Assembly (NCBI GenBank): GCA_049517415.1
Contig: JBEKSC010000016.1
Location: 1-64,000 of the forward strand
Reading direction: 5' to 3'
From: Candidatus Bathyarchaeia archaeon
Lineage (GTDB): Archaea > Thermoproteota > Bathyarchaeia > 40CM-2-53-6
Length of the DNA stretch: 64,000 bases
In this document: one piece after another, positions 19,515-41,983 of the stretch
How positions within the stretch are numbered: position 1 is the first letter of the stretch
Layout of the letters: every line of letters begins with the position of its first letter
Notes under the pieces: generated by a model
The model's input: the letters and a program-made list of their open reading frames with translations, nothing else
Database searches by the model: none
What the model was told of the DNA's origin: nothing
Made by a program: the position numbers and the translations under genes

Positions 19515-19901
19515 TCATTGGTTCAAAACGCCATCAAAGTATGCGAAATCCTGGGGCGGTTTGAAATCGAAAAACACTTCGAACGGATTCATCGGTGGGT
19601 TGAGTCGAAAAACTTCATCGATCTCGAAGGCATGAATGACGTTCCTGCCCCTACAGTATGAAAGATATTCCTCTTTCCGGATACCTCCAGAATCCTTGCA
19701 CTTCTCCCAGATTTCGTAAGGAGACCCAGAGTGTATCTTTCTGACGCTAAACCAACCTATGATTCTCTTCGACGGAGTGCACTCATAGACGAAGACCTTG
19801 CCAACCGGTTCCTTTGGTTTCCGCCTTCTGAACTCGTATCTTTTCTCTCCCGAGAAAATCTTTGAAGCGAACTCAGGCCTAATCGACAACAACACGTTCA
19901 T
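19515..19901 (-). CDS. ASCH domain protein
   Basis: LLSIRPEFASKIFSGEKRYEFRR, PPQDFAY. Confidence 0.92.
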   Translation of the reverse strand: MNVLLSIRPEFASKIFSGEKRYEFRRRKPKEPVGKVFVYECTPSKRIIGWFSVRKIHSGSPYEIWEKCKDSGGIRKEEYLSYCRGRNVIHAFEIDEVFRLNPPMNPFEVFFDFKPPQDFAYFDGVLNQ

Positions 19902-21393
19902 CAGTTCCAGTCTCCTTGATTATTTTGCTAAACGATTCGTCGGGCAGTACCTCAAAGCCCCGAGGTGCAGAGTAAATGTCCTTAATGACTCCTAACTCGA
20001 TCAGCCGTTTCATGTTTATACGCTTTGGAAACGAGTACGCGTAAAGCAAATTGACAATAAACGGCTTATTTGTCATTGGAGCTGTTTCCCATTGTTGCCT
20101 TAGTTCTTCGTCCGGAAACACGCTCCGTTTTCTGCAGAGCTTAACGAAAGAACCTGCATCTCTAATGGAAGTGTTAACGCTCTCCACTATGCAAAGCGTT
20201 GTAACTACTGACGCATAGTACCCACCAGTCCTATAGAACACAATCAAATCGCCACTCCTTAGACCACGATTGACCGATCTGGAAACGTAGACCTTTGACA
20301 TCGCATTCCTGAAGGGTTCATTGTCAATGAAATCTGCGGGTGATTCAGTCCGCAATATTGAATCCGGAAACAAATCCGTATGATACTCGGGACGTATTGG
20401 GACAAGAAACTTCCTGCCGTGCCGAGACAGAAAGGGGTACGTAGTTCTTGGCGAGGCTAAGGACGCCCTAGGCGAGAAGTTCCTCACATATACATCCTCC
20501 CTTCTCGAAACGGATTCCTTTATTCCATGGTATTCGAATCCGAAATTTCTAAGGAGATCAATTAGCCGTAACTGATCGACTCGTTTTGGAAATATCGTGA
20601 CGTAGATTTCATTTACGGATAGGCGCAGAGCATTGTCGAACACCACTTTTAGGAGGCGTTCTCCGAGTTTGACGCCGTTCGATTGGACTTTGAACGTGCC
20701 GATTTTGAGGCGCCTCTTCTTGGCAAAGGGCGGTGTGATATCCGGGTATGGTTCCGAGACATCCTCTAACTTGACGTAAAGGAAGGCAAGTATGTTCTCA
20801 TCTGACCTACAGACATATACCAGCTCATCGGACTTTCTGTTGAACCATCTTTCGTAGTCTAGATAGTCTTCCTTGAAACTGTCGAAAAACGGATCGGCTA
20901 AGTTGATATTTCCAAAATAGGCCGTCCGGACGGACAACACCTTGTAGTCCAGTAGACTGGGGTTCTCCCTCGTGACCTTCTCAAGGAATTCGTCTATTGT
21001 GAATACTGAACTATCAATTCCTAGCGATTGGGCTTTCACGTGAATTAGTCGGTCTTCCGAAATTAACAGGTCAACACGGCCGCAAAGAACCTCGTTAAGG
21101 AGGACGCTATCGTTTTCGTCGTTCTCGGTTGTGTCATATTTCGTTGATATTGCTTGTACTTCTGGTCGAAGCGGAGCTACCGTTGGTAGAAGATGATAGC
21201 TCTTTATCTTCACTAGGAATGCTTCGCGGGCCTTACTGTTCTGATTACTCGATATTTCGTTTAGCGTGACTTGGTGTATGCATTTCTGATATCCTAGCTT
21301 ATCGATCCACCCGAATAATGTCCCGATGTCTTTGTTGATCGGGTCCTTCGTTTCACGATGAATGATGATATTTGTATCCAATAGAACCTTCAT
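19879..21393 (-). CDS. PIN - GNAT - ASCH/PUA-like fusion protein
   Basis: PIN VLLDTNIII...ENDSVLL...LISED; GNAT LKIGTFKV...GVKLGERLL...FGF; C-terminal VPIRPEYH...KVYVS...GDLIVFYR. Confidence 0.85.
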   Translation of the reverse strand: MKVLLDTNIIIHRETKDPINKDIGTLFGWIDKLGYQKCIHQVTLNEISSNQNSKAREAFLVKIKSYHLLPTVAPLRPEVQAISTKYDTTENDENDSVLLNEVLCGRVDLLISEDRLIHVKAQSLGIDSSVFTIDEFLEKVTRENPSLLDYKVLSVRTAYFGNINLADPFFDSFKEDYLDYERWFNRKSDELVYVCRSDENILAFLYVKLEDVSEPYPDITPPFAKKRRLKIGTFKVQSNGVKLGERLLKVVFDNALRLSVNEIYVTIFPKRVDQLRLIDLLRNFGFEYHGIKESVSRREDVYVRNFSPRASLASPRTTYPFLSRHGRKFLVPIRPEYHTDLFPDSILRTESPADFIDNEPFRNAMSKVYVSRSVNRGLRSGDLIVFYRTGGYYASVVTTLCIVESVNTSIRDAGSFVKLCRKRSVFPDEELRQQWETAPMTNKPFIVNLLYAYSFPKRINMKRLIELGVIKDIYSAPRGFEVLPDESFSKIIKETGTDERVVVD

Positions 21394-21465
21394 TTTAGTC
21401 GCACCCCACACAACACAATCTTCTTTCGCTGGACGTCTTCGGTGAACTCACGTGGTTGTTGGTCT

Positions 21466-23870: not shown

Positions 23871-24395
23871 TCAGCGTTTCGCCTGGCTCAGTTCTTGTTC
23901 TATATGGGACGGAATTTGAATTGTCGGATTATCCCCTTCTTTGTACGAGTCGAGGATGAAGAGTTCGTTCGTCTCCAAAATGCTGTCAAGTCTGGTTAGG
24001 AGGCGGGACTTCCATTTTCCGTACTCTTCTTTTGATTCCCAGATGCCGTAGATGGCGAGGTTGTATTGATGCGCCAGGGTGTGGATTGAGAGGATCCTTG
24101 GATCTTGTAGTTCGACGCATTGTATGTCCTTCACAAACTCTCTAGCTGGCTTGGGTCTAAGTCGGACGAGGATTAGAATGGGCGTCGTTAACCCCAGTTT
24201 CTCGGGGTTTGTTTTGATTGTGAAATGTCTGATGATGCCTTTCTCCACTAAATGTTGAACCCGTTTCAGGGCGCCTACGGTCGAGATTTCGATCCCGAAT
24301 TTCGCCAGGTTGGAGGATAGTTGCTGGTACGTAGATCGCGAATCTCGTTGCAGTAACTGCAGAATGGCAACATCCCTCTCATCCGCCTCGCCCAT
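23871..24395 (-). CDS. Lrp/AsnC family transcriptional regulator
   Basis: DERDVAILQLLQRDSR...RVQHLVEKGIIRHFTI...PEKLG; likely start ATG 24395. Confidence 0.9.
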   Translation of the reverse strand: MGEADERDVAILQLLQRDSRSTYQQLSSNLAKFGIEISTVGALKRVQHLVEKGIIRHFTIKTNPEKLGLTTPILILVRLRPKPAREFVKDIQCVELQDPRILSIHTLAHQYNLAIYGIWESKEEYGKWKSRLLTRLDSILETNELFILDSYKEGDNPTIQIPSHIEQELSQAKR

Positions 24396-24414
24396 CTGAC
24401 GAAAATGACTGTTC

Positions 24415-24537
24415 GAAGTTAACAAAATTAACTTCTACACCGAGGGGTACCCATGTGTGCTTCAGCTAATTAACTTAACTAAGCTTGTGAATGAATCTCT
24501 ATTAACTGATTGACATAAGAATGTTTATGGAATTAAC
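24415..24537. promoter_or_regulatory. putative operator array in a divergent promoter
   Basis: Perfect inverted repeat GAAGTTAA-caaaa-TTAACTTC at 24415-24435; ATTAAC recurs at 24427, 24469, 24501 and 24532. Confidence 0.55.
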
Positions 24538-24565
24538 CTATACTAGTATCGTATGGGTGGAAAAG

Positions 24566-24901
24566 ATGGTTACAGTCGATCTCTCAAACTTTCTTCCGAC
24601 GATTGGTTCGTTCAGCGGTGCGGGAGCAGTCGGAGCTTTACTCGGATACGGTTTCAAGAAACTTCTGAAAGTCCTCTTGATCGTCTTGGCCGCATTCACG
24701 GCGCTGATTGGAATACCACTTGGATACCTCGCTTACGAGGGAGTCATAACGATCAATTGGGATAGACTCTACGCGCTCCTCGACTCAGCCGCTTCGGCCA
24801 GCATATCATGGTTCTCGACCGCGGCACAAGCTGTTGCAATTGCTGTCCCAGCCTTCGGCGGATTCGTGGCCGGATTTGCAGTTGGATTTCAGAAGGGATG
24901 A
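24566..24901 (+). CDS. FUN14 family membrane protein
   Basis: GALLGYGFKKLLK...YLAYEGVITINW...GGFVAGFAVGFQKG. Confidence 0.85.
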   Translation: MVTVDLSNFLPTIGSFSGAGAVGALLGYGFKKLLKVLLIVLAAFTALIGIPLGYLAYEGVITINWDRLYALLDSAASASISWFSTAAQAVAIAVPAFGGFVAGFAVGFQKG

Positions 24902-25297: not shown

Positions 25298-26416
25298 TTG
25301 ATTGGTGAAGTCGTCAGAGAGCTTGTCCGTGAACTTGACACGAAAATTGTTGAACAGAATCTCGGCGACCCGTTCCTAAGTAGCCATAACTATCGCCCTC
25401 ACCCGCTCAGACTTGAGAACTTCAATGGCATAACTAGAACTGATTCGGAACGGAGACTGGCATTCATTGATGGCGGGAATCAGGAATTAGTAGGAGCACC
25501 AAACTTCTCCGTGCAACTAAATCGAGCCTACTTCAACATATTCAACAAACGAAGGATGATTCAACCCGTCGAACTGCCGAGTCGCATCGAGTTCCTTTCG
25601 GCAACAATTGCCAAGTTCGAGGACGGCAAGATGCTCTATAATACGTCACTGTTTCCCATGAGCGGAGTGGTGCCCTCGTATCTTCCCGATCAGACTGATC
25701 TTTCATTCGATTCTGCAGATAGGAGCCTCATGGTTGGGAATTCACGTGCAGACATCGGTCGCGTCGCGTCCATAGCGAGAAGATTTGCTGAATGGCGCTT
25801 TGCGCAAAGAGTTGTGGAGAAGGAACTCGACAAGGGTGACGTCCTAGTTATGGATGGAACTCTTAGAACGGCGTTTGCGAATGAATCTAAGTACGCCAAG
25901 GCGGCATACCATGCCGCTTACGAGAGAGGAACAGTCTATTCCGGACTATCCAAGACCAGCCGACTTTTTACCACAACCGGTCTTTCGCTTCTAGGCGCAG
26001 TTCGAAGACTCGCATTAGATAACGTGACACATCCGGTCTGGTACTATTATCCGATTGCTGAATCCCTCAGCCCCGAGCATGAAGCCGCAATCTTCCTCCT
26101 AAAGCTCAGCGACATGTCAAAGCGAATCTTCAGGTATGAAATAAACGCTGAACAGGTGAAAACATCAAGCACCGGCGAATTGAACGAGATCTTCACCGCG
26201 CTCTCTCAGAATTCGAACGATCTTACCTTCCCCGGATATCCTTACGGCCTTATTGATGCCGATGATAATGCTCGTGTGAGGACAGAGGAGTTGGAGATGT
26301 ATCGGGTCATGTTGCTGTCCGAAATCTCAAAGTTAGGATCAGCCACAAAATTCCAACGCCACATGGAATCCATGGACGCCCATGGAGTCATGAATCTTCT
26401 CAAAGAGGCAGCATAG
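25298..26416 (+). CDS. nurA: NurA nuclease
   Basis: [28 protein letters not shown]-terminal AH; operon context. Confidence 0.9.
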
Positions 26417-26418
26417 CA

Positions 26419-27945
26419 ATGACGATCTGTGGACAGATAGTTGCGGGCGAAGTGGGCAAGATTCTGATCAGAGAGAAGAGCGGAGAAAAAATCGAACTTG
26501 GAGATCTCCTAGTCGTCGATGATCCTGCAGGTTACACGATCCTACAGGTCTACGACCTACTCTACGGCAGCCAGATCTCCCAACTAGCAAGGGAACAGAT
26601 AGCAGGCCTAAAGCTGGAAGGATTCGGAGTTGGACTGGAATTTTTCGAGCCACAACTACGAAACTATCTGCTGGCCGAGGCGAAGGCGGTTCTCAGAATG
26701 ACTGACCGTCCTCAATCCGCCAAAGTTCTTCCAGACTTCTTCGGAACCGTAAGGCATGTTGAACAGAAGGACTTGCCGTTCCTCAGCAAACCGGAGGATC
26801 CCATCTACCTTGGCAAGGTTAGGAGCGGATCAAAGATAATCGACGTTCCCGTATACCTGCAGGGCCAGGAAGCTCTTACGCATCACATCCTCATTCCGTC
26901 GGCAACCGGCCGCGGCAAAAGCAACCTGGTCAAAGTCATGCTCTGGAGCATAATTGGTCAAGGGAAATTTGGAATATTAGTTCTCGACGCACACGACGAA
27001 TACTATGGAAGAAACGGCAAGGGACTGAAGGACCATAATAAGTCAAAAGATCACGTCCTCTACTACTCAGTTAACCCGATCACGGGAACCAGCACGCTCC
27101 TCATCAATCTCAGAACTATTCAGCCCGATCACCTTAACGGAATAATCGCCCTGACAGACGCCCAAGAGCAAGCCGTGAGACGATATCACCACGAGTTCAA
27201 GGAGGACTGGGTCGAGCAGATTCTTCGCGGAACTGTCATTGAAGGAAGCTCAATAAAACCCGTAACACTGGGAGTTCTCCAACGAATAATCAAGACGAAA
27301 CTTTCGATTTACGTTGAAGGCAACGAAGTCGTTTGCAGGAACCGCGTGTTCAGTTCAGCAGGCGGAGAATCAACCATCAAGGAGATTGTGGCAGCACTCC
27401 AAGCAGGGAAAATTGTCATCATCGACACCTCGAAGCTTGGGGATGAAGCCGAACTATTGATCGGAAGTATGATTGCGACAGAGACCTTTAACACATACCA
27501 AAACTACAAAGCCGAAGGAACACTCACAGATAAGGTTCCAATCAGCGTCGTGATCGAGGAAGCACCGAGAGTTCTCGGCAGCGAACAATTACAAATGGGC
27601 GACAACATCTACGGTAGAATAGCAAGAGAGGGCAGAAAATTCAAGGTCGGCCTTATCGCCATAACACAGCTCACGAGCGTAATTCCACGAGACATCCTCA
27701 CGAACATCAATACGAAGATAATCCTTGGAAATGAAATGGCGACCGAGAGGCATGCGCTGATCGACAGCGCCGCACAAGATCTGACCGACGATGACCGCAT
27801 GATAGCGAGCCTAGACAAAGGAGAAGCCATTGTCACAAGCATCTTCCAGAAATTCGCAGTTCCAATACAGATACCCCTATTCGATGAACTCGTGAAGGAA
27901 CAAAAAGCGCCTGCAGAGCACCCCTCACTACAGTATAGCGGGTAA
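26419..27945 (+). CDS. herA: HerA helicase/translocase
   Basis: N-terminal HAS-barrel-like region, [39 protein letters not shown]. Confidence 0.93.
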
Positions 27946-27951
27946 GCTCAG

Positions 27952-29214
27952 TTGTATACCTTCGCTCATCTCGCAGACGCCCATATCGGGGCATTCCGAC
28001 ATCCCGCCCTTCAGCTATTAGCCCTCAAGGCATTGAACGCAACCATCGATGCCTGCGTAGACAAGAAGGTTGACTTCGTCCTCATCAGTGGCGACCTCTT
28101 CGACTCGAACATCCCCGATATGGCATTAGCTAATGCCGCAGTGAAAAAATTGAGAGAGGCCCAAGAACAAGGGATACCGCTCTACGTGGTTTATGGCAGC
28201 CACGACTTCAGCCCCACCCAAAGCTCAATTGTCGACCTCCTCGAGAGCTCAGGCCTCTTCAAAAAAGTCACCAAAGGTAAGACAATTGACAATAAGCTTC
28301 AATTAGAATTCGAAATTGATCAGCGAACAGGCGCCAAACTCTGCGGGATTTCAGGGAGACGTCTTGGAATTGACAGGGCATACTACGAGATCCTCGACAG
28401 ACAGAAACTTGAGAAAGAAGATGGATTCAAAATCTTCGCCTTCCACGGCGCACTTAGCGAATACAAACCAAAATACATGGCCGAAGCAGACTCCATGCCC
28501 ATTTCGTTACTCCCGAAGGGATTCAATTACTATGCAGGCGGACACGTCCATGAGAAAACCAGTGACAGCTCCCACGGCTACAACATAACCTATCCCGGAA
28601 CGCTCTTCGGTGCTGATTATCGCGATCTTGAAAGAAGCGCTAGCGGTGAAGAGAGAGGCTTCTACATTATTCATTTTTCCACGAAAGTCGAGAGAACGGA
28701 TTTCATCCCCATCTCAGTTTGTGACTATGATTCGGAAGAATACGACGCGAACAACAAAAGTGCAACAAAAGTCGAAGAAGACCTTCTGCAACTTGTTCGG
28801 GAGAAGAAGAATCTTACAGGTCGACTTGTCTTGCTAAAGGTCTCAGGTGAGATGGCCACCGGTAAGAGTGCGGACATAGACTTCCAGAAAGTGAAGAAGC
28901 TCCTTAAGGAAAATGGCGCCATCGAAGTTCAACTCAACTATCAAAAGCTCACCTCGAAACAATACGCTGCAATTCACGTCGCAAGTCTCGGAGAAGAATC
29001 TCAAAAGATCGAAGAGCGACTGTTCAAGGAACACGTTGGAACGGTGAAAGTCGAAAACCAGAAACTGAAAGGAGAAACAGGGGTTGCGCTATCGAAAGAG
29101 CTTCTTTCAATATTGAAGCAGGCCATGAAGGAGAACGAAACCAAGAAAGACTATGAAAAGAGAATCGTGTCGGACGCTGCCAAGACTCTAGGACTTCAGG
29201 AGGCTATCAGTTGA
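27952..29214 (+). CDS. mre11: Mre11 nuclease
   Basis: AHLADAHIG, GDLFD, GSHD, FHG, GGHVH. Confidence 0.93.
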   Translation: MYTFAHLADAHIGAFRHPALQLLALKALNATIDACVDKKVDFVLISGDLFDSNIPDMALANAAVKKLREAQEQGIPLYVVYGSHDFSPTQSSIVDLLESSGLFKKVTKGKTIDNKLQLEFEIDQRTGAKLCGISGRRLGIDRAYYEILDRQKLEKEDGFKIFAFHGALSEYKPKYMAEADSMPISLLPKGFNYYAGGHVHEKTSDSSHGYNITYPGTLFGADYRDLERSASGEERGFYIIHFSTKVERTDFIPISVCDYDSEEYDANNKSATKVEEDLLQLVREKKNLTGRLVLLKVSGEMATGKSADIDFQKVKKLLKENGAIEVQLNYQKLTSKQYAAIHVASLGEESQKIEERLFKEHVGTVKVENQKLKGETGVALSKELLSILKQAMKENETKKDYEKRIVSDAAKTLGLQEAIS

Positions 29215-31276
29215 TCCTGAAATCACTCTCCTTACAAAATATACGCAGCTACAAAGGTGACACTCCGCCAATCAACCTGCCCCTTGGCACTATCCTGTTT
29301 GAGGGTGACATAGCGTGCGGCAAGTCAACCATCCTCTACGCCATCGAATTCGCACTTTTCGGACTCGGATCGTTAGGAGGAGCCTTCCTACTACGAAACG
29401 GCGCGAAAGAGGCGGTGTAACGCTCAAGTTCGAGGTCAACGGTGCAGAATACGAGGTTCACCGAGGGCTCCATAGAAAGGGAAAGACCGCCCAACAAGAA
29501 GACTGCTACCTCATCGGCCCAGCAGGGAAATCAATACTATCTCCAACCGAGACGAAAGAAAAAGTTCTTCAAATTCTCGGCTTCAATGAGCCACCGAATC
29601 CACGCGCTCAATCAGTCATCTACCGCTATGCGATATTCACGCCCCAAGAAGAAATGAAGGAGGTCATCCTCAAAGACCCAGACAATAGACTACAGACACT
29701 CAGGAAGGCCTTCCGAATAGAGGACTATAAGATCGCTTCTAACAACTCAACTACCTTCGCGTCGAAACTGCAGGAGAAGGTAAGCCGACTACAGGGTGCC
29801 ACGCAAGACATCGATATCGTAAAGAAAAGGATCGAAGAAGACGACAACGCGATCGAAGCGTACTCCAAAGAACTACAGTCCCTGAACGCTCTAGAAGAAG
29901 AACTACAAAAACAAGTCAAAGGGGCGGAGGACGAACTTAAACAGTTAGGAGCCGAACGCGAGAAGATCAAACAGGTGGAGGGGACGATCCCCCTATTGCA
30001 GAAACAAATCGACGAATACTCGAAACAACTCAACGATACAACAACCCAAAACGAGCGCATGACAAGACGAATCGACAAAGAAATTCAGCCAGCCCTCACC
30101 AAATTCGAATCTGTGAAGAAACCTACCGAGAGATCCCTGGAAAATGTAACCCGGGAGCAAAACGACCTAAGAGTTAAACTTCAAGAATCGCAGAAGTTGA
30201 AAGGACGATTCGATGAACGCATTGGGAATTTTACGTCTTTGGTGGGAACAGGCACTTGTCCAGTATGTGAAAGGACGGTTAATCCTGACGAGTTCCGTGG
30301 CAAGTCACACCATCTGGAAGAAGACAGCAAGAAACTAGAACAGGAAATAGCTGAAACCGGAAAGGCAATATCCCAACTAGACTCGTTAACGAGAGACCTC
30401 ACAACATATCTTACTGCACAAGACCAGATCACCACCCTGCGATCGCAATTAAATGAACTAAACACGCAATTTCAACAAAACAACGACCGAAGTTCCAAAC
30501 TTACAACCTCCATAAAGGAACTTACAAACAACCTCAAAACGTCCAAAAAAGAAATCGAGCCCCTGCAGAGCGTTCTGGGCCGCATAGGCGAACTAGAGAA
30601 GGAAACGTCGCGACTGGACACGGATTTTATCCGGGTTGGAAAGAGCGTCTCCGCAACTCAGGCGACAATGGCCGCATCGATAAAGAACAGAAACGACCTG
30701 CAGAATCAACTTCTCCAGAAACAAAAAGACCTAGCGAGCTTGGCTCTACTACGCGATCACAAAATATGGTTCACCGAATACTTAACGCCAACCATCGAGA
30801 ACATTGAGAAACACGTTATGATCTCACTCAACCAGAGATTCAACGACCAATTCCAGCGATGGTTCCAAATCCTCATCGACGACCCGGACATGCAGGTTCG
30901 AGTTAACGAAGACTTCTCACCCCTAGTGGAACATGAAGGCTACGAACAGGAATTCATCGGATTGAGCGGAGGCGAGAAAACCAGCGTAGCCCTCGCATAC
31001 CGACTCGCGTTAAACACCATAGTCCAAGAAGTAGCGATAGAAGGAGGCTCGAACCTACTCATCTTGGACGAACCAACCGACGGCTTCAGCCGGGAACAAG
31101 TCCTCAAGATACGTGACATACTCACAGAATTGCGCTGCCCCCAAGTTGTCCTCGTATCACACGAAAGAGAACTCGAAGGATTCGCAGACCACATCTTCAA
31201 GATTCGTAAGTCGGCAGGCGTTTCGGAGATTATTGAAGATGAGCAACCCACATCGCTGCTTAATGAAAACAGTTGA
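29211..31276 (+). CDS. rad50: Rad50 ATPase, short coiled coil, frameshifted at ~29408-29414
   Basis: N-terminal ORF 29211..29420 has Walker A GDIACGKST; restoring one base in AAAGAGGCGGT joins it to GGVTLKFEV...; Zn-hook CPVC, LSGGE, ILDEPTDG, VSH. Confidence 0.88.
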
Positions 31277-31285
31277 GGGTTTCGG

Positions 31286-33310
31286 ATGATAATCAAGGCT
31301 ATCAAGGTGCGCAACTTTCGTTCGATAAAGGATGAAACCCTAGACTGTAGTAATTTAACCGCCTTAGTCGGGCCTAACGGGGCGGGTAAATCCTCCTTCT
31401 TGAGGGCTATCGATATTTTCTATACTGCCTCCGCCAAATATTCAGAGGAGGATTTCTACGGCAGAAATACGACCCAACCGATCACGATTACTATGAGTTT
31501 TACGCGTCTCTCCGAGGATGAGAAAATTCTCTTTCGTAGGTATCTCGAAAATGAGGAACTCACCGTCGAGAAGGAATTAGCATGGCCATGGAGCAGAACA
31601 AGCCAAAAGTACTACGGTAATGGCCTGCAAAATCCTGATTTTGCAACATTTTACCGAGCACAAACCGCGAAAGAGAAGAAAGCCGCTTACGAGAACCTCG
31701 ACTCAGCCAAATACTCTTCGATGCCACGTTACACAAATGTGAATGATGCACTAACAAACCTGAAAAATTGGGAGCAAGGTCACCCTGACGGATGTGTACG
31801 TGCGAGAGATGACGGGCAGTTCTTTGGTTTTAAGGAAGTTGGAGAAGCTCATCTGGAACGATACACTCGTTTTGTTTTTGTTCCGGCGGTTCGTGACGCT
31901 CGTCAGGATGCAGCCGAAGGAAAAGGAAGCATTCTCTCTGATATCATGGACATTGTCGTACGGAGTGTCCTAGCAAAAAGTGAGGACGTAGCGAAGCTAC
32001 AGCAAGATACGCAAACCCGATACGAACAGATCATGGAACCCGATAAACTACCTCAATTAAAACTCCTTGATGGTCAACTGGGGAACATTCTCAAACGATA
32101 CTTCCCCGATGCAGACGTAAACCTGAACTGGCTCAAATCGTCGGGAATTGAAATCCCGATGCCTCAAGCTGAGATCAGGCTTGTGGAAGACGCCTTTACT
32201 GCTGAGGTTGGCCACAGTGGGCATGGGCTTCAACGCGCTTTCATCATTTCAATGCTGGAATTCCTAGCAACCGTAACGGCTACCTCAGATGAAGCAGCGG
32301 AACCAACTGTTCCCGCCTCCACGCCCCAAGATAGTCAGAACGTGGTTTTGGGCGCAGACCTCATTCTTGGGATCGAGGAGCCAGAACTTTACCAACACCC
32401 AAATCGGCAGCGGTACCTATCAAAGGCTCTTCTGCAACTTGCTTCGGATACAGCGAATCCGGCGCGGCGTCAAACACAAGTAATCTACGCAACCCATTCG
32501 CCGCTGATGATAGACCTTGAACGATTCGATCAACTGCGAATATTCCGCAAGGATCAAGTAGAGAGCGGTCAACCTAAGGTTACGAGGATAGCCCATACGA
32601 CCCTCGACGAAGTCGCCAAAGAGCTCGAAAAAGCATGCAGTAAACCGGAGGGCACGTTTTCTGGCGAAGCTCTGAAACCCCATCTCCAAGCGCTAATGAC
32701 ACCATGGATGAATGAGGGATTTTTCTCGCAGCTTGTAGTTCTTGTGGAGGGAGAAGAAGACCGCGCCGCTATACTCGGGCTTGCGGCAGCCAAGGCGATA
32801 GATTTTGAGAACCTCGAAATCTCGGTCATACCTTGCATGGGCAAAAGCAACATCGATAGGCCCTCCACCATATTTCGAAAACTCGGAATACCAGTATATG
32901 CAATCTGGGATAGCGACTTCGGAGGTTCCGGCGCGAAGGCCGAAGATAACTACAACTTACTACGGCTGTTTGGTCAGCCAACTGAAGATTGGCCAGAGAG
33001 GGTTACAGACGTATTCGCATGTTTCAAAACGACTCTAATGAAGGAGTTCGAGAGCGAAATAGGCCAACCTGAATTCAATCAAATTCTAAGTCTGTGTGGT
33101 GAGCGTTTTCGAATCACGAAGATTGACTACTCCAAGAAGAATCCGTTAGTGATAAGAGAGTTCTTCAAGGAATGCCTCCAGAAGAACAAAGGGTTCACAA
33201 TGTTAGAGAAGATAATCGCACAGATAATGGCATTAAGCGAGGCTTCTTCGAGGCATATTGATGACCATGCGTCTTCGCCTGTGACTGCGGTTGCTGCAAA
33301 CTCCTCTTAG
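31286..33310 (+). CDS. OLD-family ATP-dependent endonuclease (ABC ATPase + TOPRIM)
   Basis: NFRSI, GPNGAGKS, GHGLQR, IEEPELYQHP, ATHSP; TOPRIM VLVEGEED...WDSD. Confidence 0.92.
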   Translation: MIIKAIKVRNFRSIKDETLDCSNLTALVGPNGAGKSSFLRAIDIFYTASAKYSEEDFYGRNTTQPITITMSFTRLSEDEKILFRRYLENEELTVEKELAWPWSRTSQKYYGNGLQNPDFATFYRAQTAKEKKAAYENLDSAKYSSMPRYTNVNDALTNLKNWEQGHPDGCVRARDDGQFFGFKEVGEAHLERYTRFVFVPAVRDARQDAAEGKGSILSDIMDIVVRSVLAKSEDVAKLQQDTQTRYEQIMEPDKLPQLKLLDGQLGNILKRYFPDADVNLNWLKSSGIEIPMPQAEIRLVEDAFTAEVGHSGHGLQRAFIISMLEFLATVTATSDEAAEPTVPASTPQDSQNVVLGADLILGIEEPELYQHPNRQRYLSKALLQLASDTANPARRQTQVIYATHSPLMIDLERFDQLRIFRKDQVESGQPKVTRIAHTTLDEVAKELEKACSKPEGTFSGEALKPHLQALMTPWMNEGFFSQLVVLVEGEEDRAAILGLAAAKAIDFENLEISVIPCMGKSNIDRPSTIFRKLGIPVYAIWDSDFGGSGAKAEDNYNLLRLFGQPTEDWPERVTDVFACFKTTLMKEFESEIGQPEFNQILSLCGERFRITKIDYSKKNPLVIREFFKECLQKNKGFTMLEKIIAQIMALSEASSRHIDDHASSPVTAVAANSS

Positions 33311-33419: not shown

Positions 33420-34949
33420 TTGATGTTAGCTCTTGAAACTTGTAACCCGCCAACCACTAGAAGTGACCCTAAGTCTGCGGCACGCAAACCTTCCACTCAG
33501 TCAGAATTGTATGGGCAGGTGTTGACACCGTCGCCTATCGCAAATCATATGGCTAAACTCCTGACCGAACGGTTGAGCGGCTGTCGGATCATGGACCCTT
33601 GCGTGGGTCCGGCAACGTTCCCGATAGCTCTCACCCGACAGAAGAGTCATCGCACGATGCATTTCACGCTATTAGACATCGATCCCAGCATGATGCGAAC
33701 AACGAGAAGCTGGGCAAAGAAGCATCGCAATCATGTAGAGTTGTCTACTTGCGATTATCTGACGACACGGAAAGACGAGGAATTCGACGGCATAATTTTG
33801 AACCCTCCTTTCGTTAGACAAGAATGGATATCACGAAAGGGACACTACCGCGGCTTGTTCTTGAAGCGCTACGGTCTTGAACTTCCGGGAACCTCTAATC
33901 TTTACGTATATTTCATCGTTAAGACGGTGCAGGATCTTAGACCTGGTGGAGTTTTTGTTTGCATAGTCTACGATTCTTGGCAATTCACCAGGTTTGGATT
34001 ATGGTTAGCTCAATACCTGGAAAATTGTTGCAGTTCTCTATGCGTAGAGTCAGTCGGGAACGCTCCGTTTGACAGGCATCTCGTGGACGCCACGATCATC
34101 ACAGGAAGGAGGAGACTGAAAACGCCCCTGGGGCCTCCGAGACAAATAGTAGGCTTGAGACAAAACAGAAGCCCATTCGTGAAGGTAAGAGGTTTTGTCC
34201 CGCTTCATCAGGTTTATGGAACGCGTCGCGGCCTACGATTGAAGCAAGCTAGTTTCTTCATGTGCTCTGCCAAGGAAGGTAAGAATCTAGGCGCAACACC
34301 CTTCTTGAAGAAAGTGGCAAAGGTGACAGGATACTTGGTTCCAACTGACCATGATGAAGCTGCTCTCATAGTAACCAGACCTAACGAAAAGCCGAAAGTG
34401 CGTACAGAGTTGCTTCGCCGACTGCGTGAAGCTATAAGGGAACCGGAATCAAATGTTTCAATACTCACGTGGTATACGCAGAGGCCTGATGCTTGGTATC
34501 TTCACGCTAATGCCCCTCACGCGCCGATAGTGTTCAATTACTATCTGCGCTCGCGACCAAAGCATATTTACAATCAGGAATACGGCTTCTCAGACAACTT
34601 CTATGGATTGACCGACATTTGTGGCATACCGACTTTGGCATCTCTCGCTCTTATGAATTCGACCGCCGTATCAGTTGAGATTCTTGCTCGATCCCGCAAT
34701 CAAGGAAATGGTCTCTCCAAGATACAGCTCTTTGAATATCGCGAAGCACTCATTCCGGACCCGCAGGTCTTAGGGACCGATTCGATCAACGCTATGGAAG
34801 AGCTAGGCAGAAGGATGACGATGGACCCAGCAAATGCTAGAGGTTACATAAATGAAATCGACTGTATTTTGGCGGAGCAATTTCATGACCCCGCACTCTC
34901 TCCTCCAACTCTGCGAGAACAGGAACAGCAGTTCCTACATGCAGCCTAG
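33420..34949 (+). CDS. N6-adenine DNA methyltransferase (gamma/Eco57I-like)
   Basis: GQVLTP, DPCVGPATF, ILNPPF, NLYVYF. Confidence 0.88.
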   Translation: MMLALETCNPPTTRSDPKSAARKPSTQSELYGQVLTPSPIANHMAKLLTERLSGCRIMDPCVGPATFPIALTRQKSHRTMHFTLLDIDPSMMRTTRSWAKKHRNHVELSTCDYLTTRKDEEFDGIILNPPFVRQEWISRKGHYRGLFLKRYGLELPGTSNLYVYFIVKTVQDLRPGGVFVCIVYDSWQFTRFGLWLAQYLENCCSSLCVESVGNAPFDRHLVDATIITGRRRLKTPLGPPRQIVGLRQNRSPFVKVRGFVPLHQVYGTRRGLRLKQASFFMCSAKEGKNLGATPFLKKVAKVTGYLVPTDHDEAALIVTRPNEKPKVRTELLRRLREAIREPESNVSILTWYTQRPDAWYLHANAPHAPIVFNYYLRSRPKHIYNQEYGFSDNFYGLTDICGIPTLASLALMNSTAVSVEILARSRNQGNGLSKIQLFEYREALIPDPQVLGTDSINAMEELGRRMTMDPANARGYINEIDCILAEQFHDPALSPPTLREQEQQFLHAA

Positions 34950-34960: not shown

Positions 34961-37885
34961 ATGGGCTGGTTGTCTTACTCCGACGATGAGGTCCTTTTAT
35001 TTCATCCCGCCTTCAAAGACGCCGTCGATAAAGCATTAGAGAAAGCCAATCTAGTGGAGAAGTATGAATGGATTCATCATCCTTCTAGAAGCCCGAAGAA
35101 GATCTTCCCAGATTTTGCCTTAGTTAACAAAGAGACAGGGCAATGGCTTCTCACCGTTGAAGTGAAGAGACGAAGAGAAGCAGTCTACGCGACGCGTAAT
35201 CAATATCAAGCGAAAAGCTATGCAGAGGATAACATAAATCGATATCCGGCTCAAGCTACAAAATTCTTCGCAATCTCCAATCTGGAAACGTCGATCCTCT
35301 TTGCTCTACATGACGGTCGTCCGCCTCAGGAATGTCAACTTAAAGACGGGGTATACACATCTGGTGACTTTCGGTCGGACACGCTCGAAGTGCATCGTAC
35401 CAAGTTTATCGACCATTGGACGGAGGTGTGTAAGCGCGTCACAGCAAACGGCCAAGTCGAGTTTGAAGTTGTTTGGCCTGCCGTATTAGACTCTCTCGTT
35501 AGCCACGCGTTAAATGTGAAGCCTTCTCCTGCCATAGCCGTTCCGATTCCCAAAACGAGCAACTGGCCCCTCATCCAGTCCTATTTCGGAGAGTCGAGCG
35601 ACTTGAACGCTGCACGCTTATTCCTTCTTCGCTGCTTGTTAGTAGAGTACTTGCGAGGAACGTTACTGAATCTCCATGATAGTCGGGGAGCTAAGATTCC
35701 GGTCATCAGGACGGAACGTCTTCAGTCCTCCCTCGCCAACGCCCTTGAGACATTGCGCGGCATCGATTTTCACGCGCTCTTTGAAGCCTCTTCTCCCGAT
35801 CTTTACCGCAATTTAACCGACCCAGATCTCGTGAATTCTCTACGATTATATGTCGAAGACCTGCTCGCCAAGAGAGTCGTGCAGCTTGCGTCGCGCGTTG
35901 ACGCACTCGAATTATTAGATACTCTATTTTCGAAGACGCATCCTTTCGAAAGTTTGGCCGTGGACGGGAAGGTGCAAACTGATCCAGATCTTGCGGATAT
36001 CTTGGCAGTACTTGCAATCAAAGACAAAACGACTCTGGTCTACGATCCCGGCTGCGGAAACGGAACACTGCTTTCCGCTGCCTATGATCGACTCGTGGAC
36101 TTGGGAGACGCTGAGAACACGGCCCTCCAAAGCTTGATAGGCATTGAGGCCGACGAAATATCAATGCGAATCGCATCACTCCGCCTTGCCCTCCGAAACC
36201 CGAAACTGCTAAGCCCCGACTTGAAACTCAACATTTTCCTAGGAGATATCTTCGCACATCCGGATTTGGTAAGAAAGGCCGACGTAGTGCTAATGAATCC
36301 GCCTTTCAAACGTTACGAGTCTCAAGACCAGAAACCGGTGCCGTCCGAGCTGAGAAAATACTACAATTCCGCCATCAAAGCGATTGACGGGAAACCTGCA
36401 ACATCGACGAAAGGCCAAAGTAACTTATTCGATTATTATGTGGAATTCGTAGCGAAAACAGCACGAGTAGGAACACATCTAGGGATTATCCTAGACAATA
36501 AGTGGTATCACAACAAGTACGGCGAAGCGCTTCGAAAACTTCTGTTGAAGGACTTTCAGATACAAGCCATTGTCGAATATCCACACGATCTCTACTTCAA
36601 ACACTATACAGTGTCCACTTCAATGTTAATCGTCGAGAAGTCAAAGAATGTCTCCACAGGGCACGAAGTTGCTTTCATTCGCTGTAGAGCCGACCCCCAG
36701 GAAGCTGGGACCTCCGTCATTGCCAAAGCCTTTCACGAAAATGCTGACTGGCCACCCGATTGGTTTGTAAGACATGTTCCGCAGCGCAATCTCAACGAGA
36801 AAGTTGGGTGGAAGACCAACTTCGATGAACCGCTAAAGCACGACTACCTGAGAAACCTAACACCCTTCGTGAGGTTCTTCGCTCGATCTAGAAGGGGCAG
36901 TCTTAACAAAGAAGGTGCAGGCACCGGAGTGATCGATTTCCCGTTCAACCAGGTAGATTATGGTCCGAAGAGAAAACGGGCTCGCGGCAAGCATAAACCG
37001 TGGGGTACCGAGGCTGATGGGCAGCTTACTCCCTCACAAAACCATCGAATCAAACAGTTGGCATCACGAATACCGGGCAGATATCGTGGGTGGGCTATCC
37101 GAAATGCTGACGATTTGACCAAGTACGTGCTTGATGAGAACAATGTTAGAAGATGTCCGACACTTGAGCCTCCGGAATTAAGGAGAGACTCATCATATCT
37201 GACTAACAAGAGGGTGGTTTGGTCATCAAAGCTAGGACGTGCCGTAACTCACATGCGATCGGATAGGAGAATAGGGCCGTTCATCCGCGAGCTCGGGAAG
37301 GTTGTTGGGTTAAACGAACACATCTTGCCACCCAAAGAGTTGTGGGTGACACTTCGTGAACCGTATGCGGGAGAGCTTATAATCCCACGGAAGATGAGAA
37401 CAGGGCACCGTGTTCACATCAACCCCTTTGCGTTCGACCCTTCGAGCAGACAGGTCCGTATCTCTAGCAACTTCATCTCCTACTCGAATTGCTTGGCGAC
37501 TGACGTCTCGTCCAATCTGGACAGGCGAGTCGCCACGACGCTAATTGCGGCTTTTCTTCTCTCAAGTTTTGGTCAACTACAGTTTGAGCGCGAGGGCTAT
37601 AATCGTGAAGGCGTATTGTGCGTTGAGAACATTCATCTGAAACGAATCAGGGTCATTGATCCAAGAAAAATCCTTCCTGCAGTGAGAGATGAAATAGTCA
37701 CGGCTTTCGGCCACCTACCCTATCCAATCTCGACAGATAGAATTTCAAGCGGACATCCAGAACGGAACGAACTGGACAGGCTGATAGCCATAGAACTTTG
37801 CCGGCTTGACAGCGGTGATCCTGCGGGGTTGATCGAGGAGGTACACGACTCACTGGACCGATGGGTGGAAGCTCGTCAGCCATGA
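34961..37885 (+). CDS. type IIG restriction-modification enzyme (REase-MTase-TRD)
   Basis: N-terminal FPDF...VEVKR...QAKSYA; DPGCGNGTLL; MNPPF; long C-terminal TRD. Confidence 0.85.
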   Translation: MGWLSYSDDEVLLFHPAFKDAVDKALEKANLVEKYEWIHHPSRSPKKIFPDFALVNKETGQWLLTVEVKRRREAVYATRNQYQAKSYAEDNINRYPAQATKFFAISNLETSILFALHDGRPPQECQLKDGVYTSGDFRSDTLEVHRTKFIDHWTEVCKRVTANGQVEFEVVWPAVLDSLVSHALNVKPSPAIAVPIPKTSNWPLIQSYFGESSDLNAARLFLLRCLLVEYLRGTLLNLHDSRGAKIPVIRTERLQSSLANALETLRGIDFHALFEASSPDLYRNLTDPDLVNSLRLYVEDLLAKRVVQLASRVDALELLDTLFSKTHPFESLAVDGKVQTDPDLADILAVLAIKDKTTLVYDPGCGNGTLLSAAYDRLVDLGDAENTALQSLIGIEADEISMRIASLRLALRNPKLLSPDLKLNIFLGDIFAHPDLVRKADVVLMNPPFKRYESQDQKPVPSELRKYYNSAIKAIDGKPATSTKGQSNLFDYYVEFVAKTARVGTHLGIILDNKWYHNKYGEALRKLLLKDFQIQAIVEYPHDLYFKHYTVSTSMLIVEKSKNVSTGHEVAFIRCRADPQEAGTSVIAKAFHENADWPPDWFVRHVPQRNLNEKVGWKTNFDEPLKHDYLRNLTPFVRFFARSRRGSLNKEGAGTGVIDFPFNQVDYGPKRKRARGKHKPWGTEADGQLTPSQNHRIKQLASRIPGRYRGWAIRNADDLTKYVLDENNVRRCPTLEPPELRRDSSYLTNKRVVWSSKLGRAVTHMRSDRRIGPFIRELGKVVGLNEHILPPKELWVTLREPYAGELIIPRKMRTGHRVHINPFAFDPSSRQVRISSNFISYSNCLATDVSSNLDRRVATTLIAAFLLSSFGQLQFEREGYNREGVLCVENIHLKRIRVIDPRKILPAVRDEIVTAFGHLPYPISTDRISSGHPERNELDRLIAIELCRLDSGDPAGLIEEVHDSLDRWVEARQP

Positions 37886-39033
37886 AACAAAGCAACGGTT
37901 TCAGAGTCATCAGTCTCTTCAGCGGGATCGGAGGGCTGGATCTCGGCTTTCTTTGGGAAGGATTCAACATCATATGGGCCAACGATCTAAACTCGCACGC
38001 TGTTGACGCATACACCAGGAATTTCGGCCTTGAGCCTACCCCTGGAGACATACATGAGATCGATCTGCGCTCACTGCCTGAAGCCGAAGTAGTAATTGGG
38101 GGCCCACCCTGTCAGGCATTTTCACTCGTCGGACAGCGCAAAACAGCTGATCCGAGAGGGGAACTGGTTTTCAAGTTTCTTGAGGCGGTAGAAACTGTTC
38201 GGCCACTGGCTTTTGTCATGGAAAATGTGCCAGGGATGGCAGCCAGCAGAGTTAACGGTGTAAGGCTTCCAGACTTGCTAACAACGGCCTTCGAGAAGCT
38301 CGGATACCACGTTACACAAACTAAGCTTGTGGCGACAGACTATCTCGTTCCGCAGAGGCGCGTTCGGATCGTAATCCTCGGATGTAGGGGTTCTCAACCC
38401 GGAAAACCCGACGGAACAAAATTCGCTTTGCAGCATTACGACATAGATTCATTGAAGCACGACATATCCGCAACAGCTGCGATTGGAGATTTGGGACCCT
38501 GTGGTAAGAAGGGTCAACGCGTATCATATCTCGACATAATGCCTTCTGAATTCGCAAGGCTGATGCGCAGTGCAGGTTTAAGAGACGTAAGCCTACACGA
38601 ATGTCCTAGAATGTCAGAGATGGACAAGCTTTTTGTCGAGCACATCCCTCCGGGAGGAAACTATTTGGACATACCCGACGACATCGCGACAAAACGGGTC
38701 AAGAATTTCAAGCGAACAGGCGGGCGGACGACAACTTACGGCCGATTGCACCCGGAACGTCCCGCTTACACAATCAACACGTATTTCCGAAGACCCAACG
38801 TGGGCTGCAATTTCCATTACTCTGAGCCACGCCTGATTACGGCGAGGGAGGCCATGCGGTTTCAATCAATACCCGACCATTTTGAAATCGATCCGAGATG
38901 CCCAAGAGAGGTGAGAAATGCTCTAATTGGAAACGCCGTGCCTCCCCTGATGGCTCAAGCAATTGCGTGGAGTCTAGACGTTGCCCTGGCATCCCGAGTA
39001 GGACTAAGCGTTACTCAGTCCACCCTTACCTAA
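37882..39033 (+). CDS. C5-cytosine DNA methyltransferase
   Basis: LFSGIGG, GGPPCQAFS, MENVPG, PQRRVR, IGNAVPP; ATG 37882 overlaps the IIG stop (ATGA). Confidence 0.95.
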   Translation: MKQSNGFRVISLFSGIGGLDLGFLWEGFNIIWANDLNSHAVDAYTRNFGLEPTPGDIHEIDLRSLPEAEVVIGGPPCQAFSLVGQRKTADPRGELVFKFLEAVETVRPLAFVMENVPGMAASRVNGVRLPDLLTTAFEKLGYHVTQTKLVATDYLVPQRRVRIVILGCRGSQPGKPDGTKFALQHYDIDSLKHDISATAAIGDLGPCGKKGQRVSYLDIMPSEFARLMRSAGLRDVSLHECPRMSEMDKLFVEHIPPGGNYLDIPDDIATKRVKNFKRTGGRTTTYGRLHPERPAYTINTYFRRPNVGCNFHYSEPRLITAREAMRFQSIPDHFEIDPRCPREVRNALIGNAVPPLMAQAIAWSLDVALASRVGLSVTQSTLT

Positions 39034-39687
39034 CCGAACTTTCCGCTTTCCAGTAGCGCAAAAAGAACAGAGGAGACAATTTTGACACTTCGGCCGATTT
39101 GGGCGACAGAATCGCGCTGACAGATCGAGAAGACCTAGGAACGTCGCCCTTCCATCATTACTCGATTCTAGTGTATCGCCGAATATGGCTTCGATTTTGT
39201 CCTCCTGGAGCCGGGGCTCGCCCGTCAATCTACGATATACTCTCAAGACATTGCGGTCGACAGGAGCCCCAGCGCGTTTTCCAACAGTCCATAAGAATGC
39301 ACGAGCAGTGTACTTGCCAACCCCGGGGAGTCCGTTGAGACTTCCTTCATCGAACGGTACCTGACCCCCGTGTTTCCTAACTAGGCTTGTCCCTAGGCGC
39401 TTCAGTTGAGAGGTCCTTTGATTCTGAAGTCCTAAAGGTTCAAGGATGTGATGCAATTCGTTCTCTTTTGCTCTTGCGATCGAAGCAGGTGTTCGATAGC
39501 GGTGCAAAACAACTGACCATACTGGGCCCACTTTAATAGCAATGGTCATATGCAGCATGACTTCTGCTATCAGAACGGGCCATGCGTGAAGCCCCTTTTT
39601 TCTCCAAGGAAAAGGCCTCCCCTGTGCGTTGTAATAACTCGAAAGGAGTTCGCTGACCATTTGTTTTTCCGAGAACAAGGGGCGCAT
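39004..39687 (-). CDS. HhH-GPD glycosylase with a 4Fe-4S motif (Mig/MutY-like, probably G:T mismatch)
   Basis: RPFPWR, LPGVGKYTA, PVDRNV, C-X6-C-X2-C-X5-C; convergent with the C5-MTase. Confidence 0.85.
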   Translation of the reverse strand: MRPLFSEKQMVSELLSSYYNAQGRPFPWRKKGLHAWPVLIAEVMLHMTIAIKVGPVWSVVLHRYRTPASIARAKENELHHILEPLGLQNQRTSQLKRLGTSLVRKHGGQVPFDEGSLNGLPGVGKYTARAFLWTVGKRAGAPVDRNVLRVYRRLTGEPRLQEDKIEAIFGDTLESSNDGRATFLGLLDLSARFCRPNRPKCQNCLLCSFCATGKRKVRLGKGGLSNA

Positions 39688-40064: not shown

Positions 40065-41100
40065 TCACTTGCGCTTCCGGAAATACCACTCTTCTCCTTC
40101 CTTGGAAACGAAAGTGAACCCGTCCTCGATCATGTTAACGCGTTCCTGTTTGGTCATTGCGACTTTGCATATCCACTCATCTGTCTCGAAGTTGACGAGG
40201 TGCGTGTAGACGAGGGTGTTTCTGATGTCTTTGTGCCCGAGAATTTGCATTACGTGGAGGATGTCTTTCGTTTTGTGATATTCCATTGTAGCCTTGAAGT
40301 GTCTCAAGGTCTTGAGGGTTATGCGCTCGATTCTTGGGTTCTGAAGTTTCTTTGCGGTTCTGCTTCTTTGGGCGGCGAGAATTCTGCGGAATGTTTCCAT
40401 CGATGATAAGGGGGTCGATGTTGGGGTCGCGGAAGATGAGTTTATGCCGTTTCGGTAGGGCGTTGAGCATGTTGACGAGTTGGGTGGAGATGTGGGGTTG
40501 GCGCGGGTTGCTGTTTTTTTCGGGGGATATGTTGATGGTTTGCTGCGCCGGGTTGAGGTCGGTCCATTTGAGGTTCCAGGCTTCGCCGGCACGCATTCCA
40601 GTCTCCTTGATTAATTGGAGCATTGCCGCCACTTTCCTGCTGCAGCTGGCAATTAGTTGATCCACTTCAACCTCTAGCGGGATGAAGGGTAGTTTCTCGA
40701 TTCGTCTGTAGTTGGGTTTGTCGAAGGGTGTGTGTTTGTAGGCGTAGAACCTTGCGAGGTCTTCGGTTAACTTTGCTTTTCTCGACTCGCTCATCTCGGC
40801 TGAGGCTAGGTAGGATTTGGCTGATTCGGCTCGTAGGAGGCTTGATCTTCTGGCGATGGATTTCAGTGATTGTACGCAGTATCTGACGGTGGAGTGGCGG
40901 TAGCCCTGCTTCCGCATCCATAACCCGAAGTTGATTATTTCGCTGAGGACTTGGGGTTCGATTTTCTGGAGAAAAACCCCCTGGGTGGAGCTGAAAGCGC
41001 CGGGGGTGGGATTTGAACCCACAGGGCACAGAGACTCGTCGGTTGGACACACCTTGAGAGGCAAGCAACGTACATCTATTTCATTTGGCATTGAGTTCAT
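40065..41100 (-). CDS. tyrosine integrase 1, frameshifted at a C5 run (~40410-40414)
   Basis: TGMRAGEA, EKNS, KTLRH, LGH, Y; split between ORFs 40177..41208 and 40065..40592; ATG 41100 overlaps the integrase 2 stop. Confidence 0.85.
40998..41022 (-). tRNA. tRNA 3' fragment (T-arm + acceptor strand, Ser-like), att-site-like, inside the integrase 1 reading frame
   Basis: GTGGG TTCAAAT CCCAC CCCCGGC G; translated in frame as VGSNPTPG; no 5' half found. Confidence 0.7.
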
Positions 41101-41951
41101 TTTCGTTTTCTGAAATACCATTCCTCGCCCTGCTTGGAGACGAAGGTGAAGCCCTCTTCGATCAGTTCGGTGTGTTCCTGCTTGGTTGATGCGACCTTGC
41201 AGATCCATTCATCGGAATCGAGCGGGAGGAGATGGATGTACTTTATTGTGGAGGTTAGGCTTCGGTGACCGAGTCGCTCCTTCACGTAGAGCAAGTCCTT
41301 GGTTCTGGCGTATTCGAGGGTGCCGCCGTAGTGTCGTAGGGTCTTGAAAGAGATGCGGCGTATGCGTGGGTTCCCTAGCCGTAAGGCGATTTTGGCGCGT
41401 TGTTTTGCGAAGTTTCGGTAGAAGTCGTCGTAGGTTTCTTCGAGGTCGGTTAGTTGGTCTGTGTGGAAGATGTGTTGGTTTGTTCGTGGACGGGCCAGTA
41501 GTGCGGCTATGGTTTGGGGTTTGAGTTTGATTCGGCGTGGTTTGGAGCCTTTCTCTGGAGTAATGTTGACTGTGTTGCTGTTCAGATCGAGATCAGTCCA
41601 TTTGAGGTCGAAGACTTCGCCGGCGCGGGCGTAGGTGTCTTTGACGGTCATCATGAATGCTGCAAGTTTTGAGCCGAGTCCGCCGATTAGTTGGTTGATT
41701 TCTTCTTCGGTGGGGAGGAAGGTGGGCATTTCGACTGGGCCGCTTCGGGGTCGTTCCCACTTTATTCCTAGTTGCCGGTAGAGCCTGTTGGCGTCGGTGA
41801 TGATTTTGTGTTTTCGGTTTTGGGTGTAGGTTGCGGTGGCTAGGTAGGTTTTGAGTTCCGTCGGGTTAGTGATGTTGCAGCGATTTGCAACCGCTTTGAG
41901 GGTTTTGATTGCGGACTTGATTGTCGAATTTTTGTAGCCTTCGCGCTGCAT
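41097..41951 (-). CDS. tyrosine integrase 2
   Basis: TYARAGEV, EKGS, KTLRH, LGH, IKY; same C-terminal tail as integrase 1 (WICKVA...GFTFVSK.GEEWYFRKRK). Confidence 0.92.
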   Translation of the reverse strand: MQREGYKNSTIKSAIKTLKAVANRCNITNPTELKTYLATATYTQNRKHKIITDANRLYRQLGIKWERPRSGPVEMPTFLPTEEEINQLIGGLGSKLAAFMMTVKDTYARAGEVFDLKWTDLDLNSNTVNITPEKGSKPRRIKLKPQTIAALLARPRTNQHIFHTDQLTDLEETYDDFYRNFAKQRAKIALRLGNPRIRRISFKTLRHYGGTLEYARTKDLLYVKERLGHRSLTSTIKYIHLLPLDSDEWICKVASTKQEHTELIEEGFTFVSKQGEEWYFRKRK

Positions 41952-41983
41952 CCAGAGCGCGTGCTGTAGAATAGCTGGGTTGG

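Follow-up and report, generated by a model that had tools for sequence, protein, structure and literature searches.

Why should a gene for an OLD-family nuclease lie directly behind the genes of the archaeal DNA end resection machinery? The question is raised by a locus in a Candidatus Bathyarchaeia archaeon (assembly GCA_049517415.1, contig JBEKSC010000016.1, positions 1 to 64,000; this whole stretch of 64,000 nucleotides is called the window), in which nurA, herA, mre11 and rad50 are followed at once by an OLD gene. An earlier, sequence-only reading had taken this OLD for a possible guard of the resection machinery. The protein belongs to a known family, and what looks new is the recurrent placement of such genes beside mre11-rad50 or sbcDC operons. 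The locus and its recurrence are real, and each functional step considered below is one that we infer. A literature search found no description of OLD genes beside mre11-rad50 or sbcDC in the portions of the papers that it covered; Krishnan et al. 2020, Dot et al. 2023 or their supplements may list it. In what follows G000 is this genome, other G numbers are genomes of the class Bathyarchaeia, and L numbers are loci mostly from metagenomes.

The resection operon and the OLD gene behind it

The genes at the centre of this study are the following.

23871..24425, minus strand: AsnC/Lrp-type helix-turn-helix regulator, divergent; in the same place in the congener G002 (68% identity)
24521..24901, plus strand: FUN14-family small protein; also before nurA in G002 (59% identity)
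25298..26416, plus strand: nurA nuclease, 372 residues; PF09376 above cut-off
26419..27945, plus strand: herA helicase/translocase, 508 residues; PF01935, Walker motifs
27952..29214, plus strand: mre11 nuclease (metallophosphoesterase), 420 residues; the only Mre11 found in the genome
29211..31276, plus strand: rad50, with Walker A, zinc hook CPVC, signature and Walker B
31277..31285, plus strand: rad50-OLD spacer, 9 nt
31286..33310, plus strand: OLD-family ABC ATPase-TOPRIM nuclease, 674 residues, motifs intact; profile and structure matches

Open reading frames and profile matches bore out the order and tight packing that had been read from the letters. The gaps between nurA, herA, mre11, rad50 and OLD are 2, 6, −4 and 9 nt, and OLD does start on the same strand 9 nt past the rad50 stop, with a restriction-modification (RM) block next. 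All four resection genes are clustered and intact (rad50 after base correction), and their catalytic motifs and the zinc hook are kept. The best NCBIfam matches of HerA, Mre11 and Rad50 are those same families, yet the scores are far below the curated equivalog cut-offs, which were set on other lineages; Rad50 was scored through its intact orthologue in G002.

The sequence-only reading had placed rad50 correctly but overlooked a frameshift in the assembly. The frame that opens at the TTG start at 29211 and carries Walker A ends at 29418-29420, and the remainder lies in another frame. Of 20 listed sequencing runs containing the stretch, which are peat and wetland metagenomes, four were compared, any of which may be the source sample. 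The aligned contigs of all four carry one extra G behind 29410 and are otherwise identical to the stretch. The frameshift is therefore an assembly error and the gene is intact in nature, which rules out a true pseudogene; the corrected Rad50 has 688 residues by count.

Overlapping the rad50 stop is a GAGGG that resembles a Shine-Dalgarno sequence. GC content at third codon positions is 0.49 for OLD and 0.53-0.56 for the operon genes, a difference too small to use. Scanning for sigma-70 promoters and terminators yielded fewer sites in the real sequence than in shuffled ones, archaeal promoters lying outside that model. Five TTAAC motifs stand at 24419-24505 of the window, upstream of the FUN14 gene; they lie both at and past the point where the divergent AsnC-type gene starts, and this cluster might serve as an operator. 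G002 has the AsnC-FUN14 pair in front of its operon as well.

The OLD protein resembles stand-alone class 1 OLDs

With Pfam-type profiles the OLD protein matched AAA_15 (E 5e-43) and OLD-like_TOPRIM (E 4e-17), its TOPRIM domain scored 63 bits with PF20469 against a cut-off of 23, and its best PADLOC model was 'Old' (E 2.5e-60). Walker A (29), the signature (312), Walker B (363), the H-switch (403) and the TOPRIM acidic motifs (487, 541) are present, and the TOPRIM residues E488, D542 and D544 are invariant in all eight aligned sequences. A profile of the OLD clade found the class 1 OLD of T. scotoductus, 6P74, as its first match in the PDB (E 8e-43). The predicted structure (pLDDT 74, with eight sequences in the alignment) also had 6P74 as its top Foldseek match (E 5e-20), followed by GajA, at TM-scores of 0.47-0.60 and with a high root-mean-square deviation. 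No P2 OLD chain appeared by name among the PDB profile matches or the Foldseek matches.

Like 6P74 and other class 1 OLDs, the window OLD joins ABC ATPase and TOPRIM in one chain and has no UvrD or reverse-transcriptase partner. It is longer than the 6P74 protein (674 against 528 residues, at about 20% identity), and its length is closer to that of a class 2 OLD. Gabija (GajA with GajB) has the same fold, but no GajB/UvrD gene adjoins the window OLD, and membership in Gabija or class 2 was rejected on that ground. Class 3 or retron membership was likewise rejected, as no reverse transcriptase lies among the neighbours and the Eco8 effector model scored 49.5 against a cut-off of 250, the non-coding RNA being unsearched. 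The neighbours scanned contain no UvrD, retron or split-PARIS partner beside OLD, in agreement with the sequence-only reading as to UvrD, and the nearest SF1 helicase lies about 14 kb upstream. Class 1 genes are reported as single genes (PMC10568477), whereas this one is packed behind a resection operon in a defence island. Judged by its sequence, the protein is a stand-alone class 1-type OLD outside the isolated context described for that class.

Another archaeal OLD-family ATPase-nuclease is Cran1, the class 5 OLD of Sulfolobales, which is reported to be conserved throughout its order, with a membrane-protein neighbour and a cell-cycle role; the window OLD is patchy and mobile, and the two are set apart here by description (PMC12796447). 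Mre11, Rad50 and HerA do not occur in the main text of that paper. Cran1 is also reported not to be antiviral, and the window OLD could similarly be an accessory nuclease of repair or housekeeping, trimming or nicking ends or acting in the cell cycle, with no role in defence. The operon-like spacing would fit such a role, as would the nearest structure, that of the DNA-cutting T. scotoductus OLD. OLD-TOPRIM genes, however, are patchy (36 of 401 class genomes), most resection operons are without one, the context here is one of RM, integrase and terminase genes, and the conserved membrane-protein neighbour of Cran1 was not seen at this locus. We regard such a role in repair or housekeeping as very unlikely.

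The operon carries the only Mre11-Rad50 of its genome and is probably imported

The sequence-only reading had asked whether a second, housekeeping mre11-rad50 locus exists. None was found in this genome (100% complete, 59 contigs). Two candidates were rejected, one on contig C36 for its SMC length and one on C35 as a member of a separate family of about 650 residues. Further NurA-HerA genes occur without neighbouring Mre11 or Rad50 (C34:13724-16293 and C42:11986-13845).

Mre11 of some type is present in 11 of the 22 congeners; in the other 11, which include a 100%-complete genome of three contigs, a wider Mre11 profile gave weak, short matches or none. Four congeners carry the Mre11-Rad50 type common to other genera of the family (46% identity), which we call native. 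This pair adjoins a gene that we take, from its sequence, to be rpl3-like in G017, G011 and G001, and in G007 the contig ends first. At the corresponding site of G000 (contig C1:3480-4966) there is another open reading frame of 353 residues, with no mre11-rad50 remnant. The Mre11 clade of the window, by comparison, has members in 28 of the 401 class genomes, which belong to scattered families. The operon is a patchy type and not the inherited housekeeping copy of the genus; the native mre11-rad50 was likely lost from G000 and the present operon likely imported. It has all four genes of the archaeal NurA-HerA-Mre11-Rad50 operon in tight spacing, and differs from the typical one in its divergent clade, its short Rad50, its site in a defence island and its genome without a native mre11-rad50.

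The genus also has, in patchy distribution, no fewer than four other Mre11-Rad50 types. A three-gene unit of SF1 helicase, mre11 and rad50, without NurA or HerA, also recurs (L038, which is G002:C42, L039, L107, L113, L114, L116 and L120), and is once followed by a type I methyltransferase.

OLD genes beside resection genes recur in other genomes

Adjacency was scored by a uniform six-frame scan with local profiles for Mre11, Rad50, HerA and NurA. Among all 41 OLD-TOPRIM places found in the class, OLD directly adjoins a resection gene in five (G000, G002, G016, G244 and G034), the order in G016 being mre11-rad50-nurA-herA-OLD. Six of 80 metagenome loci are adjacent as well (L125, L126, L153, L167, L170 and L200); this set is the best 80 of 424 confirmed OLD loci, from 14 of 64 parts, its contigs are often short (125 of 160 sides have at least 500 nt), and L203 repeats G144. 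OLD overlaps nurA by 4 nt in L167, and in L170 stands beside a HerA-like gene of weak profile score, followed by a cut mre11. Two of nine plasmid OLD loci examined (of 11 matches) are also adjacent. The sequence-only reading had proposed a search of archaeal genomes for the rad50-OLD adjacency, and it does recur, in class, metagenome and plasmid loci. A resection operon lies within 4 kb of OLD in L128, L179 and L181. Not counted as adjacent were L130 (OLD, then a Rad50-like ATPase, no Mre11), L277 (a short metallophosphoesterase) and G119 (mre11-rad50 about 7 kb off). The distance from OLD to the resection gene is tight in many cases (9, 9, 24, 31, 33, 39, 56 and −4 nt).

The clade of the window OLD has variable neighbourhoods, yet its three closest members are all behind rad50. 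The two closest relatives, L125 and L126 (68-70% identity), form with the window OLD a well-supported clade, and the sister of this clade, L128, is 3.7 kb from another operon type. In a tree of Rad50 C-termini G000, G002 and L125 stand together (support 91), and L126 falls in another subclade. The two plasmid OLDs are 85% identical, and the SbcD genes flanking them are 26% identical and on opposite sides. On a FastTree tree with 80 clade members, 11 of them adjacent rows, eight changes are needed. A single origin of all adjacent OLDs was rejected by the trees, which were quick and FastTree trees only, with long branches flagged.

Such a pattern might arise passively, if mobile resection operons and OLDs gather in defence islands, the site downstream of rad50 takes varied cargo, and OLD defends alone. 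We consider this a real possibility, though we would not bet on it, and the evidence falls on both sides. Against it stands first the closest operon, that of G002, which is 63-89% identical, has the same AsnC-FUN14 flank and holds an OLD in the same slot. The G002 OLD matches the window OLD at 32% over just 90 residues and sits on a separate tree branch. The same slot holds a different, unrelated OLD, which supports a link between OLD and the operon. Near-identical OLDs also occur beside unrelated Mre11-Rad50 types, twice, and the OLD genes above cut-off in the genus, found in three of 23 genomes, are all three beside a non-native operon. Finally, four of the 40 other class OLD loci adjoin a resection operon, which has a binomial p of about 1e-7 to 1e-6 if OLDs are placed at random in the genome, and of about 0.002 if placement is confined to islands, a rough null with assumed parameters.

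A possible mechanism and the evidence for and against it

P2 OLD is reported to be a tRNase that DNA ends or hairpins switch on, with RecBCD clearing self-ends and SbcCD suppressing activation (10.64898/2026.07.10.737580); suppression of its activation by SbcCD and RecBCD is also described in PMC13648713. Gabija is likewise reported to depend on the clearing of DNA ends by RecBCD (PMC12407980), and HerA-NurA with Mre11-Rad50 reportedly resects ends in archaea (PMC3326311). By analogy we lean tentatively, at somewhat under an even chance, to a reading in which a class 1-type OLD senses unprocessed DNA ends and is kept silent by the resection machinery. The window OLD would sense DNA ends or hairpins that NurA-HerA-Mre11-Rad50 normally clears, and would fire when a virus blocks or outruns resection. 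It would read the state of the DNA rather than the repair proteins, making the operon a safeguard and not something physically guarded. The five genes would share one transcript. The substrate might be tRNA, which P2 OLD cleaves, or DNA, on which the OLDs of Thermus and Vibrio act. Coupled to an operon that clears ends, OLD could spread into hosts that have no such operon, and selection may favour the coupling because a host would be harmed by an OLD that came without genes for end processing. Lamassu also builds immunity from Rad50/SbcC-like end sensors (PMC12663957); there the SMC-like subunit senses for its own effector, whereas the window has a full Mre11-Rad50-NurA-HerA set beside a self-contained OLD.

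In a bolder form of this proposal, the locus would represent a new OLD class, a portable immunity module in which an end-sensing OLD has its safeguard built in, as a mobile Mre11-Rad50(-NurA-HerA) or SbcDC unit; archaea and bacteria would have put such modules together on many independent occasions. We hold this wider claim to be unlikely as it stands.

A series of observations weighs against a functional link. The first comes from the sister operons. The 27 other class genomes with the window-type clade show a downstream gene in 20 cases and a contig end in seven, and two further loci bring the total to 22. OLD is behind rad50 in one of these 22 (G002), so the rad50-OLD link is not obligate. 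Defence-type cargo takes that place in five (OLD, type I RM, PD-(D/E)XK with a methyltransferase, and HNH twice), in favour of island co-residence, and the remaining sisters have housekeeping or unknown genes there. The sequence-only reading had named varied, unrelated cargo after rad50 as the outcome that would speak against it, and in 21 of the 22 sisters other, varied genes are indeed found, though not in G002.

Non-adjacent OLDs are the majority, at 36 of 41 in the class, 20 of 20 in the rest of the phylum (20 of 23 places examined), 74 of 80 in metagenomes, 15 of 15 on viral contigs and seven of nine on plasmids. In G034 OLD follows, after 9 nt, a rad50 of which only the 3' half is present, with no Mre11 match in the genome (94% complete, 310 contigs). 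OLD orientations vary, which suits co-residence: OLD is divergent from nurA in G244, 421 nt apart, it is convergent with the resection genes in L153, and the gap in L294 is 381 nt. Co-transcription is therefore not required. In the window itself a TATA-like hexamer, found with a loose pattern and without a chance control, stands 27 nt before the OLD ATG, and OLD may have its own promoter.

The control, a small one, comprised 49 of 72 places of the HsdR family (type I RM) in the same 401 genomes, eight with narrower windows. One of the 49 was adjacent to a resection gene (G018) and three were within about 4 kb. One-sided Fisher tests, on counts that include kin and are not independent, gave p 0.12 for class OLD (4/40, the query left out) against HsdR (1/49), p 0.21 for pooled OLD without plasmids (10/155 against 1/49) and p 0.44 within 4 kb (13/155 against 3/49). 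The excess of OLD adjacency over the type I RM control is not significant, which again favours co-residence. So do six plasmid SbcDC modules akin to the Paracoccus one (six of 25 matches examined), which have varied neighbours and in no case an OLD; when the type IIG protein was used for a plasmid control, no match came up. Outside the genus Mre11 was found in 27 of 28 OLD-bearing and 42 of 47 HsdR-bearing class genomes tested, and because Mre11 is near-universal in the class (69/75), co-occurrence at the genome level is uninformative. The class 1 OLD of Vibrio cholerae, moreover, is reported to be a RecBCD-independent nickase (PMC12392090).

RM or methylase genes are the direct neighbour in 16 of the 80 metagenome OLD loci (109 neighbours scanned), commoner than resection genes, and eight of these 16 are DUF1156; a UvrD-like gene is one of the 109, on the opposite strand. 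This frequency also speaks for a different account, that OLD opens the downstream RM cassette and fires when RM is inhibited or cutting, the cassette having landed behind rad50 by chance. RM blocks do follow OLD in both G000 and G002, but the RM genes differ between the two. OLD is separated from the methyltransferase by 109 nt with a TATA-like stretch, against 9 nt from rad50, and L125, the closest relative, has Holliday-resolvase-like genes and not RM directly behind OLD. An RM back-up is in our view improbable.

The analogy with P2 OLD drawn in the sequence-only reading has to be revised, since P2 OLD senses ends and hairpins and not RecBCD itself, and the Vibrio OLD is independent of RecBCD. 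The idea of a guard is supported in part, by the locus, its recurrence, the sole Mre11-Rad50 and the island; an obligate or housekeeping link is not.

Island context and further observations

The operon sits among PDC-M11A, Nmad3, two RM sets, two integrases and one terminase, which agrees with the earlier view of operon and OLD as part of an immune setting as far as location goes. The surrounding features are as follows.

19515..21411, minus strand: PDC-M11A candidate defence protein and ASCH protein; island context
33420..34949, plus strand: N6-adenine DNA methyltransferase of the RM block; profile matches
34961..37885, plus strand: type IIG restriction-methyltransferase (BpuSI_N); profile matches
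37861..39033, plus strand: C5 cytosine methyltransferase; profile matches
39004..39687, minus strand: HhH-GPD glycosylase-like protein; PADLOC type II nicking endonuclease model
40177..46621, no strand assigned: two tyrosine integrases, terminase large subunit, N6/N4 methyltransferase and MvaI/BcnI endonuclease

Further candidate defence genes lie at 19008-23576 of the window, namely PDC-M11A (E 3.5e-208), the ASCH gene, Nmad3 and several unannotated nuclease-like open reading frames. At 13626-17186 an SF1 helicase of 1186 residues is fused to PLD-like and OB-fold/SSB-like domains. The two tandem tyrosine integrases and the terminase large subunit at 40177-44499 are a remnant of a provirus or integrative element. 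No convincing att-like repeats were found around the island, and no tRNA gene within the window; a tandem array of 18-nt repeats occupies positions 1-216, at the contig start.

Elsewhere, a branch of the OLD clade lies directly before DUF1156 methyltransferases (L160, L163, L165, L180, L186, L187, L188 and L198), and in L127 and L131 OLD lies between type III mod and res genes. Paired Holliday-junction-resolvase-like genes occur near OLD/resection loci at L125:2731-3684 (PF10107) and L167:13144-14169 (similar by eye). In G016 a fusion of SIR2-domain protein and ABC ATPase (L104:11973-14351) is directly behind a weak OLD-like gene.

Implications

That this genus has lost Mre11-Rad50 and apparently replaced it is of note even should the link to OLD prove passive. 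To our knowledge archaea are without RecBCD, and the portable module, if true, would be the first case in archaea of a conflict like that between RecBCD and OLD; one would then expect some archaeal viruses to encode Gam-like proteins that inhibit Mre11-Rad50 or NurA-HerA. If OLDs are held in check by Mre11-Rad50-NurA-HerA, one would understand why operons for break repair move about within defence islands, and toxicity could serve to screen archaeal viruses for inhibitors of resection. The rule that self-attack by end-sensing immunity is prevented by repair nucleases would then hold in archaea too, and reach the ancestor of the eukaryotic Mre11-Rad50 complex.

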